Shown: positions 1,723 to 46,925 of the stretch, one piece after another | Layout of the letters: each line of letters starts with the position of its first letter | How positions within the stretch are numbered: the stretch's first letter is position 1 | Assembly: GCA_965246825.1 (NCBI GenBank) | Contig: OZ251990.1 | Span: 3,894,541 to 3,958,540, forward strand | DNA from: Chthonomonadaceae bacterium | Lineage (GTDB): Bacteria > Armatimonadota > Chthonomonadetes > Chthonomonadales > Chthonomonadaceae | Reading direction: 5' to 3' | DNA: 64,000 nucleotides | Notes under the pieces: model-generated | What the model saw: only the letters and a program-made list of their open reading frames with translations | What the model was told of the DNA's origin: nothing | Database searches by the model: none | Made by a program: the position numbers and the translations under genes

Positions 1723-3663
1723 CTATCGTCCGCCGAGTTTCTCACAGATCGCGTCCACATCGTAGACGCAGCCGCCCCACGTTCCCCCGCTCACCCCTTG
1801 CAGAGCCGCCCACATTCGGGTGTCGTCGGGCAGGTCGGGATCGGGAGCGAGGTCGAGGCGCAGAGGACGGTTTTCCAAGCGGCGCGTCCCCTCTTCCGCT
1901 CCGTACACTTCGCCGTTTTCGCCAATCAGGTTCACCGTACCCAGAAGCTCGCTGCGGTCAATGACGATCTCGATCAGGTCGCCGTCGCGCACTTTCCCGA
2001 TGGCTCCCCCTGCCAGGGCTTCGGGGCCGATATGCCCGATGCAGGCTCCCGTCGAAACCCCCGAAAAGCGGGCGTCGGTGAGCACGGCCACCGTCTTCCC
2101 CCACGAAATGAACTTTAGAGCCGAAGTAATCTGATACGTTTCCTCCATGCCCGCGCCCATCGGCCCCCGGCAGATGAGCACCACAATGTCTCCGGGTTTC
2201 ACGGGGTTCTCGGTATGCCCCTTGATGGCGGCAATCGCGGCTTTTTCGGTGGTAAACACGCGGGCTGGCCCCCGCTTTCGATACACGTTGTCGGGGTCTA
2301 CGGTGTCAGGGGAAATCGCCGTAGACTTGATCACCGAGCCTTCGGGACAAAGGTTACCGACGGGGAAGGTGACCGTTGAAGTCAGCCCCTGCGCACGGGC
2401 GCGTTCCGGCGAAAGGATCACGTCATCGGGCGAGATGCCGTCCGCCTCCAGAAGCCGCGCCTTCAGCCGCCTTCTTCGCTCGGAAGCCTCCCAAAGTTCT
2501 AAATTCTCCCCCAGCGTTTTCCCGGAAACCGTCAGGCAGTCCAGGTGCAGCAGCCCCTGTTCGCGCAGGTGAAGCATGACTTCTGGCACACCCCCCGCCA
2601 GAAACAGGCGCACCGTCGGGTGATCGGTCGGGCCGTTTGGGAGCACATCCACAAGGCGCGGCACGGCACGATTGATCGCAGCCCAGTCGTCCACCGTCGG
2701 GCGGCGCACCCCGGCGGCAAAGGCAATCGCGGGGATGTGCAGCAGCAGGTTGGTGGAGCCGCCGCAGGCAGCATGAACCGCCATCGCATTCTCGAACGCT
2801 CTCTCCGTCAGGATGTCGCGGGACGTGATGCCGCGCTCCTCCAGTTCGACAAGAGCGCGGGCGGTTTCCCGCGCCGTCTCTTTCCAAATCGGCTGGCCGG
2901 AGGGGGCGAGCGCGGCATGGGGCAGGCTTAGTCCCAACGCCTCCGCCACCACCTGCGCAGTGGCCGCCGTCCCGAAAAACTGGCAGCCGCCCCCCGGCGT
3001 GGCGCAGGCACGGCAGCCCAGTTCCGCCGCTTCCTTCAGCGTAATCTGCCCATGTGCATAGCGTGCGCCAATCGTCTGGATTTTTCCGGCGTCCTCTCCG
3101 TTGGCGGGGGGCAGGGTCACGCCGCCGGGGACAAGGGCGACCGGAAGGTGATGCATGGAGGCCAGTGCGATGAGCATGGCGGGCAAACCTTTGTCGCAGG
3201 TAGCTACGCCGAGCACCCCCCGGCGGTTTGGCAGCGAGCGAATGAGCCGGCGGAACACCAGGGCAGCGTCATTTCGATACGCCAGCGAATCCATCATGCC
3301 GGTGGTTCCCTGCGTTCGCCCGTCGCAGGGATCGGAGACAAACCCGGCAAACGGCACACAGCCGAGGGCAGCAAATTCCTTTGCGGCGGCCTCCACCAAA
3401 AGCCCCACTTCCCAGTGCCCCGTGTGGTAGCCCAGGGCGATGGGCGAGCCGTCGGGCGCACGAACGCCGCCCTGCGTGGAGAGCAGCAAAAATTCGCGGC
3501 GGTCGGCGGTATCGGCGTTCCAGCCCATACCCACATTTTGAGAAAGCCCGAACAAGTCCCCGGAGGGACGATGCAGCAGCATCTCTTCGGTGAGGGGCAG
3601 CGAACCGGAGGGGCCGTCCGCTTTTGTAGCAACATCATAAAGGTCGGGGATCGGATTGTTCAT
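1723..3663 (-). CDS. IlvD/EDD-family dehydratase, long (646 aa) YjhG/YagF-like sugar-acid (xylonate-type) dehydratase
   Basis: Motifs [18 protein letters not shown] and [17 protein letters not shown]. Length and N-terminal extension fit the ~650-aa YjhG/YagF subgroup rather than IlvD. Confidence 0.8.
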
Positions 3664-4031: not shown

Positions 4032-5567
4032 ATGCGCCACTTTTTCCGCCGCCGTGCCCTCGCTCCGCTTCTCGGAGCCGCCGCTCTTGTGCCTCTCTCC
4101 GCGCCTGCTGTTCCCCCCCGTCAGGAGTCTTCCCTCCGTGTGGTGCTCGTGGGTTCCGGCCCCGATCTCGACTACAATCAAGTTGCCATCGAAAGTAACA
4201 TCCGCTATCTGAACCGAATTTTGCCGCCCTCCTCGGAACGAACCGTTTTGTTTGCCGACGGCGACGTAACCCACAAAACCGTGCTTTATGAAGACGACCC
4301 GCGAAGGCTTCCGGCAGGCGAATCCCTTTTGTTTCTGGCAATGAAAAGCCGCCGGGAACAGGAGGCGGAAACTCAGGGCCGTTACAAAACCCCCAACCTC
4401 GGCTCCCGGTGCAAGGGCGCAAACACCCCGCCCACCCTCCGAAAAGTGCTGGACGATACCGCCCAGGTTCTGCGTAAAACACCCTCGCCGCTTTTCCTCT
4501 ACTTCACGGGGCACGGCTCGATCAACCCGCGTGGGATCGAAAACAACGTCTATGAGATGTGGGGCGACAAACGCTTTTCCGTCACCGACCTCGCCGAGAA
4601 GATCGAAGCCCTGCCGTCGCAGGTTCCTGTCACCCTCGTAATGGTGCAGTGCCATTCGGGAGCCTTTGCCAACCTTCTTTTTCGCGGCGGCGATCCACGC
4701 GGGGAAGCAGTGGATCGGGACTTCGCCGGTTTTTTCGCCGCCATCAAAGAGAATGTGGCGGCGGGCTGCACGAGTGAACTCAATGAAGACGACTACCGCG
4801 ATTTCACCTCCTACTTTTTTGCGGCCCTGACCGGGCGGGATCGGCTGGGGCGCACGGTTCCCTCCGCCGATTTCAACCGGGACGGGCGCGTGGGTATGGA
4901 TGAGGCCTACTGCGATACGCTGGCGAAAGACCGGAGCATTGATGTTCCCGTCGCCACCTCCGATGTGTTTCTCCGCAAGATTTATCCGCTCACCGAAACT
5001 GAGGAAGCCGCGCTGCTGTCTGCCCCTTTCGCAGACGTGCTGCGCTGGGCTTCCCCCGCCCAGCGTTTCGCGCTCCTTGCGTTGTCGGACGAATTGAAAC
5101 TGGGCGGCGAAGACCGGCTGACGGGGGCTTATCATACGCTGCGATCCGCAAAAAGCCAGAAAGAGCGGCGGCAGGAGTTTCGGCTTTCTTCCGAAGAGAA
5201 GCACTATGACGCGCTTCAGGAGAGTGCGAAGCGGATTTTGCTGGGTCGCTTCCCGAAATTGGCCCGTGAACGGGGAAACGAGTCTGCGGGAGCGAAGCGG
5301 GAAGCGGTCGCCTTTCTTGCGCTTCATCAAAACGAGGCTCCCTACAAAAATTTGCGTGAGGCTTACTCCGCCCTTTCCCAGTCCTTTTCCGAGTCGGAGC
5401 GAAAACAGATCGAAGACGCCCATCGGCTGCGCTTGATTCGTCTGGGAAAAACGGTTTTGCTCGCCCGCAAACTCCAAACTTCCCGCCGCGAGGCCCTGAA
5501 AGCCCGCTTTGCTCGGCTTCTGGTTTCGGAGGGGAGAACGCTGCTGCCCCCGCACAGCCGAATGTAG
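4032..5567 (+). CDS. secreted clan CD cysteine peptidase, legumain-like (peptidase C13 family)
   Basis: Start moved to ATG 4032, giving a signal-peptide-like N-terminus (MRHFFRRRALAPLLGAAALVPLSAPA). His-Gly and Cys motifs (LYFTGHGS ... ~50 aa ... LVMVQCHSGAF) match the legumain pattern (YFTDHG...IEACESG). Confidence 0.55.
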   Translation: MRHFFRRRALAPLLGAAALVPLSAPAVPPRQESSLRVVLVGSGPDLDYNQVAIESNIRYLNRILPPSSERTVLFADGDVTHKTVLYEDDPRRLPAGESLLFLAMKSRREQEAETQGRYKTPNLGSRCKGANTPPTLRKVLDDTAQVLRKTPSPLFLYFTGHGSINPRGIENNVYEMWGDKRFSVTDLAEKIEALPSQVPVTLVMVQCHSGAFANLLFRGGDPRGEAVDRDFAGFFAAIKENVAAGCTSELNEDDYRDFTSYFFAALTGRDRLGRTVPSADFNRDGRVGMDEAYCDTLAKDRSIDVPVATSDVFLRKIYPLTETEEAALLSAPFADVLRWASPAQRFALLALSDELKLGGEDRLTGAYHTLRSAKSQKERRQEFRLSSEEKHYDALQESAKRILLGRFPKLARERGNESAGAKREAVAFLALHQNEAPYKNLREAYSALSQSFSESERKQIEDAHRLRLIRLGKTVLLARKLQTSRREALKARFARLLVSEGRTLLPPHSRM

Positions 5568-5787: not shown

Positions 5788-7617
5788 ATGACGCAAAGTT
5801 CCGTTCAGGGCGAAAACCGCCGCACGATTTATCGAATGTTCCAGGAAACGGCGGCTCGTCACGCCGACCGCCCCGCCCTTCGCTGGAAGCCCAGCAAAGC
5901 CGCCGACTATCTCACCCTCACCTATCGGGAGTTGGAGGCGGAGGTGAAGCGGGCGCGAAAGGCTTTGTTCACGCTGGGTCTGAAACAGGGCGATACGCTT
6001 GCTCTGCTCAGCGAAGGCCGCCCGGAATGGGTGGTAACCGACCTTGCGGCGCAGTCGCTGGGGATTCGGCTTGTCGCGCCCTACACCGTTTTGCCCTCCG
6101 CACAGACCGCCGCCATCGTTTCCGATTCAGGGGCGAAGGTTTTGGTGGTTTCCGACGCGAAGCTGCTGAAGAAAGCGGGAGAAATGCGCCCTCTTACCCC
6201 TGCTCTTACCACCCTGCTGGTGTTTACGGCGGAGCCGGGGGAGGCAGAAGCCGCAAACGCATTGCTGTGGAACGACTTTTTGCGGCGCGGCGACGAAAAC
6301 CCGACCTCAGAAGTGGAACTGGATCGGCTCTCCGACCTCGTTTCCGCAGAGGAGGTCTCCACGCTCATCTATACGAGCGGGACGACCGGCGATCCAAAGG
6401 GAGCCATGCTCACCCACCGCAATCTGCTCCATACGGTAGACCACGTTTATTCGGGAAAGGTTGCGAATCTCAACGAGCAGGACGTGTTTCTTTCCTTTCT
6501 GCCGCTGTCGCACATCACGGAGCGGGACGGCTGCTACCTGGCGATCCGGGGCGGCGGCTGTACGGTCTACTCTCAGGGGCTGAGCAGCCTGGCCGACGAG
6601 CTGACGACAACGGTACGCCCCTCCGCAATCCTGTGCGTGCCGCGCCTTTGGGAAAACATTTACGAGAAGGCTCTCGACGGGCTTCAGAAGCGTGACGAAA
6701 AAACAAAGAAAAAGATTTTCTGGGCGTTGGAGATCGGAAAAAAGGTGGCGAAAGCCAACGCGAGCGGAAAGTCTCCCGGCCTGCTGACCGCCCTGCAGCA
6801 CAAACTCGCGGATGCACTGATTCTCTCGAAGGTGCGGGAAAAGATTACGGGCGGCAACCTCCGACATTGTGTGTCGGGCGGGGCTCCGCTTAGCAGTGAA
6901 GCTGGCGAATTCTTTCTCGCGCTGGGTGTCAACATTATGGAAGGGTACGGACTTTCAGAATGTAACATCATTGCCATCAACCGACCCGGACGGCAGCGCA
7001 TTGGAACTGTCGGCGAAATCATGCCCGACACCGACACGAAGACGGCTCTCGACGGGGAACTGCTGGTGAGGGGAGGCGGCGTGATGAAAGGCTACCACAA
7101 TCAGCCAGAAGCCACCCGCGAGGCGATTGATGAGGAGGGCTGGTTTCATACGGGGGACATCGTAGAGCTTTCCTCCGACGGTTATGTGAAGATCACCGAC
7201 CGCAAAAAAGATTTGCTCGTGCTCGCGAACGGAAAGAAGGTGGCTCCGCAGCCGATTGAACTGGCCCTGAAGCAAAGCCCCTACATCGCAGAAGCTGTGC
7301 TGTTTGGTGACCGACAGGCGACCGTCTCGGCTCTGATCGTGCCTGCCTTCGATAAACTTGTCGGCTGGGCCAAGTCAAACGAAATCAAGTTTCACAAAGC
7401 CGAGGAGCTGCTCGATCTCCCGGAAACGCAGAAACTCATTAAAGGCGAAGTGGACGCTCGGAACGCGGTGCTTGCGGATTACGAAAAAGTCAAACGCTTT
7501 AAGTTGATCGCCACGCCCTTCACCATTGAGGCAGGTGAACTCACCCCGTCCTTGAAAGTGAAGCGGCGCGTGGTCGCCGTGAAATACGCGCCGCTTCTGG
7601 CAGAAATGAACCGCTAA
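5788..7617 (+). CDS. long-chain fatty-acid--CoA ligase (AMP-dependent synthetase/ligase)
   Basis: AMP-binding motif YTSGTTGDPKGAMLTHRNL and the GYGLSE/TGD motifs. 609 aa. Confidence 0.85.
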   Translation: MTQSSVQGENRRTIYRMFQETAARHADRPALRWKPSKAADYLTLTYRELEAEVKRARKALFTLGLKQGDTLALLSEGRPEWVVTDLAAQSLGIRLVAPYTVLPSAQTAAIVSDSGAKVLVVSDAKLLKKAGEMRPLTPALTTLLVFTAEPGEAEAANALLWNDFLRRGDENPTSEVELDRLSDLVSAEEVSTLIYTSGTTGDPKGAMLTHRNLLHTVDHVYSGKVANLNEQDVFLSFLPLSHITERDGCYLAIRGGGCTVYSQGLSSLADELTTTVRPSAILCVPRLWENIYEKALDGLQKRDEKTKKKIFWALEIGKKVAKANASGKSPGLLTALQHKLADALILSKVREKITGGNLRHCVSGGAPLSSEAGEFFLALGVNIMEGYGLSECNIIAINRPGRQRIGTVGEIMPDTDTKTALDGELLVRGGGVMKGYHNQPEATREAIDEEGWFHTGDIVELSSDGYVKITDRKKDLLVLANGKKVAPQPIELALKQSPYIAEAVLFGDRQATVSALIVPAFDKLVGWAKSNEIKFHKAEELLDLPETQKLIKGEVDARNAVLADYEKVKRFKLIATPFTIEAGELTPSLKVKRRVVAVKYAPLLAEMNR

Positions 7618-8202: not shown

Positions 8203-8209
8203 AAACAGG

Positions 8210-8246
8210 AAAAAGCGGACTGGGAAACTTTCCCAGTCCGCTTTTT
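8210..8246. terminator. bidirectional intrinsic terminator between convergent genes
   Basis: AAAAAGCGGACTGGGAAA-c-TTTCCCAGTCCGCTTTTT: a perfect GC-rich hairpin flanked by an A5 run and a T5 run. Confidence 0.6.
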
Positions 8247-8266
8247 CAGTAGGATTGAACTATCGC

Positions 8267-13687: not shown

Positions 13688-13715
13688 TTTCGGGTTTAGC
13701 TTCTTCTCAAAATTC

Positions 13716-13746
13716 AATGTAACCGGTTGCAGAAACCGGTTACATT
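13716..13746. promoter_or_regulatory. LacI-type operator-like palindrome upstream of the LacI-family gene
   Basis: AATGTAACCGGTT-gcaga-AACCGGTTACATT is a perfect 13-bp inverted repeat. The half-sites resemble the LacI-family operator pattern TGNAANCGNTNNCA. Confidence 0.5.
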
Positions 13747-13920
13747 GAGGATAACACAACGCAGGCTTCTTGTCAAGAGGAAATTTGCGGAGTTTTTGCC
13801 AGCAATTGCAGAAAGTGAGGGGATTATAAAAAACACAGCGGTTAAGGAGAGCAGGGAGAACGCAAACCAGAAACGGGGAGGGTATTTGTTTCTGGTTTGT
13901 GCGGCGCGAAAGTTGGCCCG

Positions 13921-29157: not shown

Positions 29158-29248
29158 TTTCCGTGAAAGGGGCAATCGGCACTCCAGAGGAGGGATCAGG
29201 GGGCGGAAGAAAACCCATCCCTGACGCTTCCCCTCCTCCCTGCAAGAG

Positions 29249-29337
29249 CGGAGTGATAGGGATTCGAACCCTAGATAGGGGATTAGCCTATACACGATTT
29301 CCAATCGTGCTCCTTAGACCAACTCGGACATCACTCC
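29249..29337 (-). tRNA. tRNA-Ser (anticodon GGA), type II with long variable arm
   Basis: Minus-strand sequence GGAGTGATGTCCGAGTTGGTCTAAGGAGCACGATTGGAAATCGTG...GGGTTCGAATCCCTATCACTCCG. It has a 7-bp acceptor stem, a 3-bp D stem, anticodon loop TTGGAAA and a long variable arm. Confidence 0.75.
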
Positions 29338-29455
29338 CGGCAACGACCCTCCCTATGAGAGGGAGGGTCGTGACAACGAGGTTCAGTATAGCACGACGCA
29401 TCCGGGTCTGTCAACGATGAAATTGTCAGAATTCTCTTTCCTGTCCCTCCGCTCT

Positions 29456-29500
29456 GTTTCATTCAAGCACTGCCTTCGGGGGAACCCGCTTGAATGAAAC
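29456..29500. repeat. palindromic element, GTTTCATTCAA-core family (copy 1)
   Basis: GTTTCATTCAAGC-19 nt-GCTTGAATGAAAC is a perfect 13-bp inverted repeat. The core is shared with the elements at 29683..29738 and 30883..30938. Confidence 0.6.
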
Positions 29501-29682
29501 TTTATCAACTGGGCATCAGGCAGGAGAGGGCAGCGATGATACGGCACTGCAGCCAAGAGCGCGGGCTTGGGTTTTGCGGAGAAGGAGAAATCGCTCTTCT
29601 TCAACACACCGTCAGCGTTCTTAGGCAAATTTCGTCCTGGCGTTCTCGGCGTTTGCAGCGGTTCTCCTCCCTGCTCTTTGGT

Positions 29683-29738
29683 GATTTCAATTCTTCAAGC
29701 AGGTCTTTTCCCTAGAGGATCTTGAGATTGAATGAAAC
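29683..29738. repeat. palindromic element, same family (imperfect copy 2)
   Basis: TTTCAATTCTTCAAG ... CTTGAGATTGAATGAAAC is an imperfect inverted repeat that carries the GATTGAATGAAAC arm. Confidence 0.4.
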
Positions 29739-29857
29739 GGGAAAGCACCCGGGGGGTGGTTTGGGTTGAGAGTTTGCTCTTGAAGCGGGTAGAATGTCAG
29801 GGTATCCTAATGAGTATCAAATAGAATCGTTTTTTTCAGGGGATGAGGAGTGAAATC

Positions 29858-30763
29858 ATGAGTGAGTCGAATGGCACGGGAGCGGAAACTTCCACCTGGC
29901 GGACCAAGGTCGGACTGGCCGAGATGCTGAAGGGCGGCGTCATCATGGACGTGGCCAATGTGGAGCAGGCGGTGATTGCAGAGGAGGCAGGAGCCGTCGC
30001 AGTGATGGCCCTGGAGCGGGTTCCTTCAGATATTCGCAAGTTCGGGGGCGTGGCGCGAATGTCCGACCCGAAAATGATCCGAGAAATCATGGGAGCGGTT
30101 ACGATTCCGGTTATGGCGAAATGCCGGATCGGGCATCTCGCCGAAGCGCAGATTTTGGAAGCCCTGGGCGTGGATTTTATTGATGAAAGCGAAGTGCTGA
30201 CCCCGGCGGACGAAGAAAACCACGTCAACAAGCACGACTATCAAGTGCCGTTTGTCTGCGGCTGCCGTGATCTCGGCGAAGCCCTGCGGCGGATCGGCGA
30301 AGGCGCGGCTTTGATTCGCACCAAAGGCGAGCCGGGAACCGGAAACGTGGTGGAGGCGGTGCGTCACATGAGAACGCTGATGCGCGATCTGCGCCGGGTG
30401 CAGTCTCTGCGCGAGGACGAACTGATGGTGGCCGCAAAAGAGTTTCGCGCTCCCTACGATTTGATTCAGCAAATTCACCGCACCGGCAAACTGCCGGTTC
30501 CGAACTTCTCGGCAGGCGGGATCGCCACCCCTGCCGATGCCGCGCTGATGATGCAACTGGGCGCAGAGACGGTGTTTGTCGGCTCCGGGATTTTCAAGTC
30601 CTCCGATCCGAAAGGGTTTGCCCGCGCCATTGTGGACGCCACCCTACACTACAAAGACCCGGCGGCCCTCGCGCAAATCTCCTCCGGCATGGGAACCGCG
30701 ATGGAAAGCCTCGATGTTCGCACCCTGCCCGAAACGGAAATCATGGCGACTCGCGGCTGGTAG
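29858..30763 (+). CDS. pdxS: pyridoxal 5'-phosphate synthase lyase subunit PdxS
   Basis: [37 protein letters not shown]...[17 protein letters not shown] ribosome-binding site before ATG 29858. No pdxT gene is adjacent. Confidence 0.9.
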
Positions 30764-30882
30764 CGATTAGGGATCGGGAGCCGCCAACCGAACGAGCCTC
30801 CGAACCTCCGTTCTGCTCGTGACTTCCGATCCTCTTGATGCCCGGTCGCTCTCATGTGAGAAAAGCAACTTTGGAACGCTGG

Positions 30883-30938
30883 GGTTTCATTCAATCAGGC
30901 CGGAAGGCGGCACTGAAACAGTGATTGAATGAAACCCT
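30883..30938. repeat. palindromic element, same family (copy 3)
   Basis: GGGTTTCATTCAATCA-24 nt-TGATTGAATGAAACCC is a perfect 16-bp inverted repeat with no flanking T-run. Confidence 0.6.
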
Positions 30939-30989: not shown

Positions 30990-33011
30990 TTATCCCTTTC
31001 CGTTACTCACCGCCGGAACTTTCGCCTCCTGCACCAGGGGTACGGTTTCGACGATTACGGGCAGCGTGGGGGAAGACGGCGGCAGTGCCTCTTTGAGCGC
31101 GCTGAGAAACGCCGGGTTTTCCGCGAGCCTCTGCGCCACATTCGCGGCAAGTTCGGGCGAAACATTCGCCGTGTCGTTTCCCGTCACGCGGGCAATCGCA
31201 GGCTGAAGCAGGCTTCCCAGCTGCGCGATCAGGCCGTTTACCGCGTCCTCTTTGCCGTTTCCCGTGCCGGTTGTCGGGTTGGCCCCCTTTGCGAAACCCT
31301 CCAGCATCGAGCGGAACCCAAACCCTTTTGCCATGTTGTCCATCATCGTTGTGGCCGTTTCCGGGGTTCCATAAAGGGTCATGTGTCCATTGGCGAGAAA
31401 ACTGGCCATTGCCCGCGCAAACTCCATCTGCACATCGCGATCCGCCTGAATAGTCAATCGCTGCACCTCCAGCTGGATGCCCGCCTGAGCGAACTCCTGG
31501 CGGTTTTCCAGCTGCTGCCGCTCGACCGCCACCCGCGCTCCCTCCACATTGACCTCTTCCCGTGCAACCTCTACTGCGACCATCTGCTGTGCCCGCTCGC
31601 CTCGTGCCACCAGTTCTTTGGACGTGGCTTCCGCCTCTGCCAGCTGCCTTCGGGCATCGGCCTGCTGCTGTGCGGCCTCCCGCTCCGCCTCCGCCTGTTT
31701 GACACGGGTGTAGGCTTCCACATCCGCCCCGGTTTGCGATTGAAGTTTGCTCTGCTCGATTTGCTGCCGGGCCGCAATCAGTTTCTTGTTCGCTTCGCGG
31801 TCTGCCTCCGCCAGCTGCGTAACGGTGACAACCTGCTGGCTTGCTCGTTCGCGCTCGGCAGAAGCCAGCAGTGCCGACTCCTCCGCCTTGGCCCGGGCCG
31901 TTTCCCGCTCGGCAACAGCAATCTGCTTTTGCCGTTCCGCCAATGACACCCCTTGTTCCCGCTCGACCGTCGCCATCTGCACCTGCTGATCGCGGGCGAT
32001 CTGAGCCGTCTGCACTGCCTGTTCCTGCTGGGTACGGGCAATTTCGACCGCCTGTTCGCGGGCGATCTCCTGCGCCTGAATCTGCTTCTCCTTTTCGATT
32101 TTGGCGAGTTCGATCTGCCGCTGCTGCACAATCACGGCTTCCTGCGCCTCCCGCTCTTTGTCGGCGCGAACCTTTGCGATTTCGGTGGCCTGCTGCGCCT
32201 CCGATTCCGCCTGCTGCCGTTCGAGCTGCAAGATCAACTGCCGGGTCTCCACATCTTTTTGCTTTTTGTTGCGCTCTGCCTCCCGCTCCAGGTGGTTGCG
32301 CTCGACGGCAGCAGCGGCAGTGATTTCGGTGATCTTGCGTTTGCCCTGAGCATCGAAAACGTTGTTATCCGACAGTTCCCCCGGATCGGTTTGATCCAAT
32401 TCCGAAATCGTTACCGACTCCAGGAGAAGGCCGTTTGATTCGAGGTCTACTTTGACGTGCTCTTTCACCCGTTCGGCAAACTCATCGCGTTTGGTGTGAA
32501 TCTCGAACAAGTCCATCTGAGAAGCAATCGCCCGCAGTGCCGACACCAGTTTCTCGCTGACGAGTGCCTCGACGGTTTCGGCGTTCACGCTGTTCTCGCC
32601 CAGCGAGCGGGCCGCATTCAAGATGTGTTCTTCGTCTGCCTGGACCCGGATGTAAAACTGGGCCAGTACATTGGCACGGAGGTTGTCGCGGGTAATCAGC
32701 GCGTTCTGCCCGCGTGGGTTCACGCCCAGTTTCATCGTCCGCAGGTTGATCTCCAGAATTCGATGAAGCCAGGGATACACCCGGATTCCACCATCCAACA
32801 CCACTTTGCTGCCGCCGGAACCCGTGCGAACAAACGCTTGATCGGCACTTGTGCGCCGGTAAAACATCATCAGGGTGGCTCCGACGCCGACGAGCATCAA
32901 GACCAGCCCCGCCACCCCCAGCAAAATCTGCACCGCAAACCCGAGATGTCCGGCAAACAGACTTCCCAGCGTCACGCCCAAACCAACGATGACTAAAATT
33001 GGTCCCATCAT
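30990..33011 (-). CDS. flotillin/band-7 (SPFH) family protein with long coiled-coil
   Basis: N-terminal TM helix, SPFH core, an extended E/A/Q/R-rich coiled coil, and a C-terminal A/G-rich tail. AAAGGAGGAG ribosome-binding site before ATG 33011. Confidence 0.8.
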   Translation of the reverse strand: MMGPILVIVGLGVTLGSLFAGHLGFAVQILLGVAGLVLMLVGVGATLMMFYRRTSADQAFVRTGSGGSKVVLDGGIRVYPWLHRILEINLRTMKLGVNPRGQNALITRDNLRANVLAQFYIRVQADEEHILNAARSLGENSVNAETVEALVSEKLVSALRAIASQMDLFEIHTKRDEFAERVKEHVKVDLESNGLLLESVTISELDQTDPGELSDNNVFDAQGKRKITEITAAAAVERNHLEREAERNKKQKDVETRQLILQLERQQAESEAQQATEIAKVRADKEREAQEAVIVQQRQIELAKIEKEKQIQAQEIAREQAVEIARTQQEQAVQTAQIARDQQVQMATVEREQGVSLAERQKQIAVAERETARAKAEESALLASAERERASQQVVTVTQLAEADREANKKLIAARQQIEQSKLQSQTGADVEAYTRVKQAEAEREAAQQQADARRQLAEAEATSKELVARGERAQQMVAVEVAREEVNVEGARVAVERQQLENRQEFAQAGIQLEVQRLTIQADRDVQMEFARAMASFLANGHMTLYGTPETATTMMDNMAKGFGFRSMLEGFAKGANPTTGTGNGKEDAVNGLIAQLGSLLQPAIARVTGNDTANVSPELAANVAQRLAENPAFLSALKEALPPSSPTLPVIVETVPLVQEAKVPAVSNGKG

Positions 33012-34094: not shown

Positions 34095-34127
34095 GGCAAA
34101 GAAAAGAGGAGGCGGCGGCCTCCTCTT
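34095..34127 (-). terminator. intrinsic terminator after the GspE-like ATPase gene (minus strand)
   Basis: Stem AAGAGGAGGC/GCCTCCTCTT with loop GGCG. On the minus strand it is followed by TTTTCTTTG. Confidence 0.5.
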
Positions 34128-34159
34128 TTCCGGGTCTGGTTTTCTTCGGGGCGGTGTTT

Positions 34160-45928: not shown

Positions 45929-45977
45929 AGTCAGCGGTTTTCTCCTCACGAAAACCGCTGACTCTGCACATTTTTTT
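45929..45977 (+). terminator. terminator-like hairpin after the 873-aa secreted protein gene
   Basis: AGTCAGCGGTTTT-ctcctcacg-AAAACCGCTGACT, with a T7 run 7 nt downstream. Confidence 0.4.
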
Positions 45978-45999: not shown

Positions 46000-46059
46000 C
46001 TTGGGCAAAGAAACACCGCAAACGCAGGCTCCTTTTCTCGCGGTGTTTCTTTGCCCAAG
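46000..46059. repeat. 20-bp perfect inverted repeat (CTTGGGCAAAGAAACACCGC / GCGGTGTTTCTTTGCCCAAG)
   Basis: The arms are separated by a 20-nt loop. It ends ~20 nt before the start of the dockerin-protein gene. Confidence 0.6.
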
Positions 46060-46831: not shown

Positions 46832-46863
46832 ACCGATCCGAAAGAGGACATTTCGACTAGAAA

Positions 46864-46896
46864 AGCGAGCGGCTTCCAAAAGGGAAGCCGCTCGCT
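46864..46896. terminator. bidirectional hairpin terminator between convergent genes
   Basis: AGCGAGCGGCTTCC-aaaag-GGAAGCCGCTCGCT flanked by AAAA and TTT. Confidence 0.5.
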
Positions 46897-46925
46897 TTAG
46901 CAAAGTGCCGATAAAGTTTCTTCTC

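Follow-up and report, generated by a model that had tools for sequence, protein, structure and literature searches.

Three hairpin-forming elements around pdxS

A 64-kb stretch of the genome of a Chthonomonadaceae bacterium (Armatimonadota), referred to here as the window, carries pdxS, which encodes the lyase subunit of pyridoxal 5'-phosphate (PLP) synthase, between a tRNA-Ser gene and a convergent flotillin gene. The extragenic DNA on either side of pdxS contains three palindromic elements, termed here E1, E2 and E3, to none of which a strand is assigned:

29456-29500, E1: GTTTCATTCAAGC, 19 nt, GCTTGAATGAAAC; arms of 13 bp, 100% complementary
29683-29738, E2: apparently decayed copy; right arm GATTGAATGAAAC (29726-29738) intact, left arm GATTTCAATTCTTCAAGC with insertions
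30882-30937, E3: GGGTTTCATTCAATCA, 24 nt, TGATTGAATGAAACCC; arms of 16 bp, 100% complementary

The exact 11-mer GTTTCATTCAA, which forms the core of the arms, occurs five times in the window when both strands are counted. All five occurrences fall within 29456-30935 and all are extragenic, compared with 0.05 expected from dinucleotide shuffles, and none of 100 shuffles reached five. When up to three mismatches to the 13-mer were allowed there were 21 matches outside the locus against 17.6 expected for the whole window, which is the level of chance. An earlier note on this DNA had claimed that three hairpin elements with a common arm core bracket pdxS, and the 11-mer counts confirm this, as the sequence does its description of E1 as a perfect 13-bp inverted repeat at 29456-29500 and of E2 as an imperfect one at 29683-29738, where insertions break the left arm. 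E3 is indeed a perfect 16-bp repeat, but had been placed one base off, at 30883-30938.

When the elements and 60 nt on either side of each were aligned locally, in both orientations, similarity was found over 11-17 nt of arm only, with no sequence common to their loops or flanks. The best pair was E1 on the forward strand against E3 on the reverse strand, with 16 of 17 bases matching (GTTTCATTCAAKCACTG), so that pdxS lies between two perfect copies that are inverted relative to each other. The arm consensus can be written (G)GTTTCATTCAA(K)C, around a non-conserved spacer of 19-24 nt; the arms are 19 nt apart in E1, about 21-25 nt in E2 and 24 nt in E3. They start GTTTC, are made of a TTCA-TTCA direct repeat and are not themselves palindromes, and they are AT-rich (3 of 11 positions are G+C) in a window of 57% G+C.

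Both perfect copies are predicted to fold far better than shuffled sequence. E1 gives -21.3 kcal/mol as RNA (z -4.7) and -13.9 kcal/mol as single-stranded DNA (z -5.6), and E3 gives -34.4 kcal/mol as RNA (z -6.4) and a z of -5.9 as single-stranded DNA. E2 folds no better than shuffles (z +0.4 as RNA, +0.8 as DNA) and looks like a decaying copy in which hairpin pairing has been lost. The repeats are real and non-random, form hairpins, resemble each other in the arms only and are extragenic.

Beyond the common 11-mer the stem of E1 gains GC/GC, and that of E3 gains TCA/TGA inwards and GG/CC outwards, which amounts to 7 further complementary positions whose bases differ between the two elements. 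By our own arithmetic, 7 such pairs would arise in independent sites of a duplex-binding protein with a probability of ~4^-7. Since the stems have been extended with different yet complementary bases, it appears to be the hairpin pairing, and not merely a motif, that was kept; from the sequence, either pairing itself (as RNA, single-stranded DNA or cruciform) would have been maintained or the elements would have been created as palindromes.

Two other inverted repeats of the window were recorded. The longest perfect one, at 46000-46059 (20-bp arms CTTGGGCAAAGAAACACCGC and GCGGTGTTTCTTTGCCCAAG, 20-nt spacer), has the same architecture of a stem with a loop of ~20 nt as E1 and E3, with an unrelated sequence, and folds as DNA at -24.2 kcal/mol (z -7.3). 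It lies just after a canonical terminator (45929-45963) and ends 20 nt before the ATG (46080) of a 276-aa open reading frame (ORF) with no Pfam match. The second is a perfect 15-bp repeat at 13714-13748 (TCAATGTAACCGGTT gcaga AACCGGTTACATTGA). The ORF of a LacI-family regulator, which stands beside a myo-inositol oxygenase gene, overlaps it with its 5' end, and the repeat is probably a LacI-type operator.

Genes and promoter-like sites at the locus

The features among which E1-E3 are placed are as follows:

29248-29337, reverse strand: tRNA-Ser(GGA), bounding the 520-bp gap upstream of pdxS
29385-29414, reverse strand: strong promoter-like site of tRNA-Ser, TTGACA-18-TATACT with a TG extension, divergent from pdxS
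29766-29795, forward strand: promoter-like site of pdxS, TTGAGA-18-TAGAAT, with an overlapping TTGAAG-17-TATCCT found by eye
29858-30763, forward strand: pdxS (PF01680; 91% identity to Chthonomonadaceae PdxS), the bracketed gene, outside the repeat
30771-30832, forward strand: imperfect 24-nt inverted repeat immediately past the stop of pdxS, with no sequence relation to E1-E3
30990-33011, reverse strand: SPFH/flotillin gene (PF01145), convergent with pdxS

The start of pdxS is backed by the lengths of its homologues (298-304 aa). The region upstream of it had been described as unusually long, at ~520 bp. The gap to tRNA-Ser is indeed of this size, but it holds two divergent promoter-like sites and is therefore a divergent-promoter region, not one long leader. 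E1, between the two promoters, precedes the -35 hexamer of tRNA-Ser by 42 bp, and the end of E2 precedes that of pdxS by 28 bp. Both are upstream of both predicted starts and, as far as the promoter predictions go, are probably in DNA that is not transcribed. The sole element in a transcribed position is E3, which lies 3' of both pdxS and the convergent flotillin gene, at 119 nt from the stop codon of the former and 52 nt from that of the latter. The inverted repeat at 30771-30832 is a candidate 3'-end structure of pdxS itself.

A role for E1 and E2 as RNA elements controlling pdxS, one of the earlier proposals, was not supported. Rfam at E <= 10 gave only the tRNA and noise at the locus, and predicted folding did not exceed that of shuffled sequence either for 29501-29860 (z +0.5) or, on the opposite strand, for the spacer from E1 to E2 (z -1.3). 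A riboswitch or structured leader of pdxS was rejected on the Rfam result, the z of +0.5 and the position of E1 and E2 upstream of the promoter-like site.

No pdxT was found by tblastn in the window or in the fetched loci of relatives, using as query a B. subtilis PdxT sequence, which bears out the observation that pdxS lacks an adjacent pdxT. Since pdxS stands alone in all relatives examined, and Chthonomonas genomes have been described as non-operonic with scattered pathway genes (PMC4959169), a lone pdxS is ordinary for this lineage.

Several smaller features were seen upstream of pdxS. The leader of tRNA-Ser, between its promoter-like site and the mature 5' end, contains a perfect 12-bp hairpin at 29343-29371 (ACGACCCTCCCT atgag AGGGAGGGTCGT). 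A 16-nt stretch abutting E1 (29440-29455) is an 88% inverted match to the tRNA-Ser 3' end plus 4 nt (29245-29260); it was rejected as an att-site remnant, as 2.5 kb should contain about one match of this kind by chance. At 29803-29822 a -10-like hexamer is followed after 3 nt by GAGTATCA, and the same arrangement is found upstream of pdxS in a relative, L121 (3876-3893; TATCCTaatGAGTATCA in the window, TATAATaaaGAGTATCA in L121). This stretch is the only similarity between the pdxS upstream regions and may be a conserved start or leader motif.

Relatives and searches for further copies

PdxS is 91% identical to a protein from a Chthonomonadaceae metagenome-assembled genome (MAG), and the many matches at 82-88% belong, where the source is named, to Chthonomonadaceae or Chthonomonas. 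In the loci of relatives that were compared, PdxS was 84-93% and flotillin 78-83% identical, the best flotillin match outside the source genome being 83%. The neighbours differ: pdxS is found as cinA-pdxS-PMT in L121 and as recR-pdxS-ispDF in L124 and L125, and the flotillin gene keeps its upstream partner only. Intergenic DNA, including that upstream of pdxS, could not be aligned with the relatives.

The arm motif was absent from the pdxS and flotillin loci of these relatives (~78 kb of distinct DNA), beyond single one-mismatch chance matches. A covariance model built from E1-E3 and run over 142 kb (the window and the relatives) returned only E1-E3 themselves and no diverged members, with scores for E2 of 31.8-47.1 bits, and no further copy was present in the other ~62 kb of the window. 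This last result allows, at 95% by Poisson statistics, up to ~230 loci in the 4.86-Mb genome. Scanning species genomes for TTTCATTCAA-N10-40-TTGAATGAAA gave at least 120 loci, which among the matches listed were all from unrelated taxa and without similarity to the window. A stricter pattern gave six matches in JGI metagenomes, all unrelated, and the viral scan gave one, an irrelevant AT-rich palindrome at a contig end. The literature search on the motif strings returned only unrelated short hairpin RNA and primer sequences.

The relatives carry hairpins of their own at some of these positions. In L121, the closest relative, whose PdxS is 91% identical, pdxS is also bracketed by two hairpins (3569-3592 and 4930-4954) with the stem core CCTCCCCC/GGGGGAGG, which also occurs in L132 (936-960) and L122 (1216-1240). 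The 9.9 kb of L121 contain no other hairpin of this kind. One of the two comes after cinA and the other after pdxS, both are without a T-tract, and they may be a parallel to E1 and E3 or simply the C-rich kind of terminator usual in that genome. L125 (5921-6023) and L124 (about 5923-6067) have a very long composite hairpin of ~100-145 nt in the space from pdxS to the convergent ispDF. Its arms, GCGGATGAAACAGAT and ATCTGTTTCATCCGC, have only the 7-mer GTTTCAT in common with the window motif.

Two palindromes were noted among the scan matches from other taxa. Several Victivallales MAGs (loci L008, L027, L052, L069, L088, L091, L095, L109 and L115) carry a genuine dispersed palindromic repeat, ATAGTTTTTCATTCAAATAAATTC...GAATTTATTTGAATGAAAAACTAT, on many contigs, which shares a 10-mer with the window motif by coincidence. 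Six MAGs of Syntrophus and other Deltaproteobacteria (L022, L065, L096, L103, L104 and L118) contain, once per contig, a 45-nt palindrome, TGAACATTTCATTCAATCGG-N5-7-GATTGAATGAAATGTTCA, which has the look of a conserved operator or RNA hairpin of this group and has no connection with the window organism.

Interpretation and comparison with known systems

We tentatively interpret E1-E3 as a low-copy palindromic repeat resembling repetitive extragenic palindromic (REP) sequences, their hairpin-forming doublets (REPINs) or miniature inverted-repeat transposable elements (MITEs), with E3 perhaps also acting as a transcript-end hairpin. They are most likely a small family of selfish or structural repeats and no dedicated pdxS switch or pdxS-specific sensor, and we disfavour an operator or riboswitch of pdxS. 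Copies of a short palindrome able to form a hairpin, with two inverted conserved arms around a non-conserved spacer of 19-24 nt, would have spread or been copied locally, as single-stranded hairpins or by recombination, and would have settled in extragenic DNA and then decayed, E2 being one such decayed copy. The family would also be dispersed elsewhere in the genome, and any present-day function would be a by-product of the hairpin. E3 is placed where one would look for a terminator serving pdxS and flotillin alike and may be a 3'-end stem-loop or a stabilising one, and E1 and E2 would lie in untranscribed DNA upstream of promoters.

This kind of repeat fits best because the elements lie outside genes, have arms that are conserved and loops that are unrelated, count one decayed copy among them, are missing from relatives and are not followed by a T-tract. 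Degradation such as that of E2 is expected in a repeat free of selection, and the absence of the motif from the pdxS and flotillin loci of relatives suggests that it is lineage-specific, like REP and MITE families. E3, between convergent genes, occupies a classic REP position.

Several observations weigh against such a repeat. No copy was found outside this 1.5-kb locus, whether in the other 62 kb of the window, in the ~78 kb from relatives, in the JGI metagenomes or among the species-genome matches listed (at least 120), and three copies around one gene with none elsewhere would be odd for a randomly dispersed family. A REP/MITE-like family had been among the candidates of the earlier note; its architecture still fits best, but the 64 kb hold no member outside the locus. 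The 40 ORFs of the window that were scanned against Pfam include no REP-associated tyrosine transposase (RAYT), IS200/IS605 transposase or other Y1 transposase. The sole transposase of the window is an rve-type DDE enzyme 29 kb away, with an unrelated end sequence. The GTAG/GTGG head that marks RAYT-linked REPs is missing from the arms, which are no palindromes themselves, and neither target-site duplications nor a common flanking target could be read from the sequence at E1-E3.

The rve-type DDE transposase ORF (45-926; PF00665, PF13683) lies at the left edge of the window and is the only mobile-element gene found there. E1-E3 were rejected as insertion sequence (IS) ends, as the end sequence downstream of this transposase (45-923) is unrelated to them.

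A different account, which we consider unlikely, is that the elements work as hairpins at the RNA level, E3 as a bidirectional terminator without a T-tract or as a protective 3' stem-loop for pdxS and flotillin, and E1 and E2 as read-through insulators. Such a role can coexist with an origin as a repeat family. The distances of E3 from the two stop codons agree with it, and E3 dominates the predicted RNA fold between the genes on both strands. Some relatives have a hairpin at the matching site after flotillin (L133, 8074-8117; L134) or after pdxS (L121, 4930-4954; L125, 5942-6004). However, no T-tract, and hence no U-tract in RNA, follows any element on either strand, in agreement with the earlier note, and the terminator scan of the window lists none of the three. 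Canonical terminators with A-tract, stem and T-tract do exist in this genome (for example at 8209-8247, 34101-34130 and 46862-46898), and the AU-rich stems of E1-E3 are unlike them. Moreover, E1 and E2 lie upstream of both predicted promoters and are probably untranscribed, and hairpins acting as RNA would leave the arm sequence common to E1 and E3 unexplained.

It is doubtful, and indeed quite improbable, that the elements are operator sites at which a DNA-binding regulator controls pdxS, and perhaps the divergent tRNA-Ser too, with looping between upstream and downstream sites in a manner that recalls MocR/PdxR-type control. MocR-type regulators use repeats several helical turns apart. Within the 64 kb the motif occurs only around pdxS, and the arms nearest the predicted starts of pdxS and tRNA-Ser, which precede these starts by ~64-74 and ~78-90 bp, respectively, are at plausible activator positions. 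Against this, arm spacing differs between the elements, and complementarity continues past the common motif in bases that differ between E1 and E3, something that a protein binding duplex DNA has no need of. The copy nearest the pdxS promoter, E2, is the degraded one, and E3 is downstream of the gene. The motif is absent from relatives whose PdxS is 84-93% identical, no MocR/GntR gene is present among the scanned ORFs, and the motif is not known to resemble PdxR boxes. The earlier suggestion of sites for a shared regulator is thus disfavoured by the variable spacing, the extended complementarity, the downstream copy and the absence from relatives.

We regard it as very unlikely that E1-E3 mark the boundaries of a relocatable or rearranged single-gene module, as recombination sites or as breakpoint scars of a move of pdxS between the tRNA-Ser and flotillin blocks. 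The neighbourhood of pdxS is different in every relative examined, the synteny of the flotillin block ends exactly at the 3' end of flotillin, where E3 sits, and the best match, that of E1 and E3 over 16 of 17 bases, places perfect copies on both sides of pdxS in inverted orientation. However, synteny is poor throughout the family (see also PMC4959169), which makes a breakpoint at the elements weak evidence. No recombinase or HUH enzyme is encoded nearby, among the scanned ORFs, and the R-box pattern of integron attC sites is absent. The core sites of Xer and other tyrosine recombinases are shorter than the 19-24 nt centre of the elements, which is too long for them. With the best flotillin outside the source genome at 83%, the databases hold no closer relative that could show an empty site. 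A more specific version, in which a hairpin-recognising enzyme encoded elsewhere cuts or recombines at the GTTTCATTCAA stem-loops and so moves promoter-equipped housekeeping genes such as pdxS, is likewise very unlikely in our judgement; such a mechanism would be cassette-like and functionally akin to attC or pdif modules, with an unrelated sequence. Chance similarity of unrelated hairpins, for which nothing speaks except the other long hairpins of unrelated sequence in the window, is refuted by the counts of the exact 11-mer.

If E1-E3 are ordinary palindromic repeats, their value is mainly for annotation: the elements would be kept from being taken for a B6 riboswitch or a pdxS operator, and a repeat type would be added for the poorly studied Armatimonadota. 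If hairpins systematically bracket single genes or mark synteny breakpoints, they would offer a candidate mechanism behind the 'disorganised' order of genes for which Chthonomonas-like genomes are well known. A relocatable module, if real, could likewise help to explain the scattered, non-operonic gene order of Chthonomonadaceae.

Among known systems, intrinsic terminators share with E3 a stable stem-loop past stop codons. E1-E3 depart from them in their AU-rich stems, in loops as long as 19-24 nt and in the missing U-tract, and neither E1 nor E2 is downstream of a gene; a canonical intrinsic terminator was rejected, as a G+C-rich stem, a short loop and a U-tract are all lacking. The PdxR (MocR) operators of pdxST are likewise upstream of the pdxS promoter with repeats several helical turns apart, but here pdxS has no pdxR beside it, the motif bears no relation to theirs, arm spacing is variable, E3 is downstream of the gene and the motif is not kept in relatives. 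The outer 8 nt of E1 resemble half-sites of parS, which was rejected because the halves are 29 bp apart and the window contains no real parS. Likeness to HAIR/HspR sites, the ARG box and Xer/dif was also considered, and in each case the orientation or spacing is presumably wrong.

The ends of IS200/IS605 elements and of palindrome-associated transposable elements (PATEs) are distinguished by a common flanking target of 4-5 nt, which E1-E3 lack, and E1 and E3 match best in inverted and not in direct orientation; neither a Y1 transposase nor TnpB, as expected with IS200/IS605 ends, is encoded by the scanned ORFs. Integron attC sites, including those of clusters of attC sites lacking integron integrases (CALINs), resemble the elements more closely, being palindromes, though imperfect ones, whose outer boxes are conserved and whose centre varies, and which recur at roughly gene-sized intervals, so that a gene looks like a cassette. 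However, the boxes R'' (RYYYAAC) and R' (GTTRRRY) are not found: the nearest attC readings are ATTCAAG/CTTGAAT in E1 and ATTCAAT/ATTGAAT in E3, so that AAC/GTT is replaced by AAG/CTT and AAT/ATT, respectively. The stems of E1 and E3 are also perfect, with no extrahelical bases, and pdxS has its own promoter-like site. Identity as attC was rejected on the boxes, the perfect stems and the lack of an integrase, as neither IntI nor any other tyrosine recombinase was found among the scanned ORFs.

Bacterial MITEs such as Correia, ERIC and RUP elements have in common with E1-E3 terminal inverted repeats, an extragenic and non-coding nature and a hairpin when transcribed. They are usually 100-400 bp long with a conserved interior and target-site duplications, whereas the interiors of E1-E3 are unrelated and there is no consistent duplication. 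REPINs are REP doublets that form hairpins and are mobilised by RAYT transposases. E1-E3 differ from them in that their arms are not small palindromes, as each REPIN unit is an imperfect palindrome, and have no GTAG/GTGG head, in their short length (45-56 nt), in the three copies seen at one locus and in that no RAYT gene was seen in the window. What they have in common with REPs and REPINs is an extragenic location, often between convergent genes, lineage specificity, decayed copies and, above all, two inverted conserved short units that fold with a poorly conserved spacer into one long hairpin.

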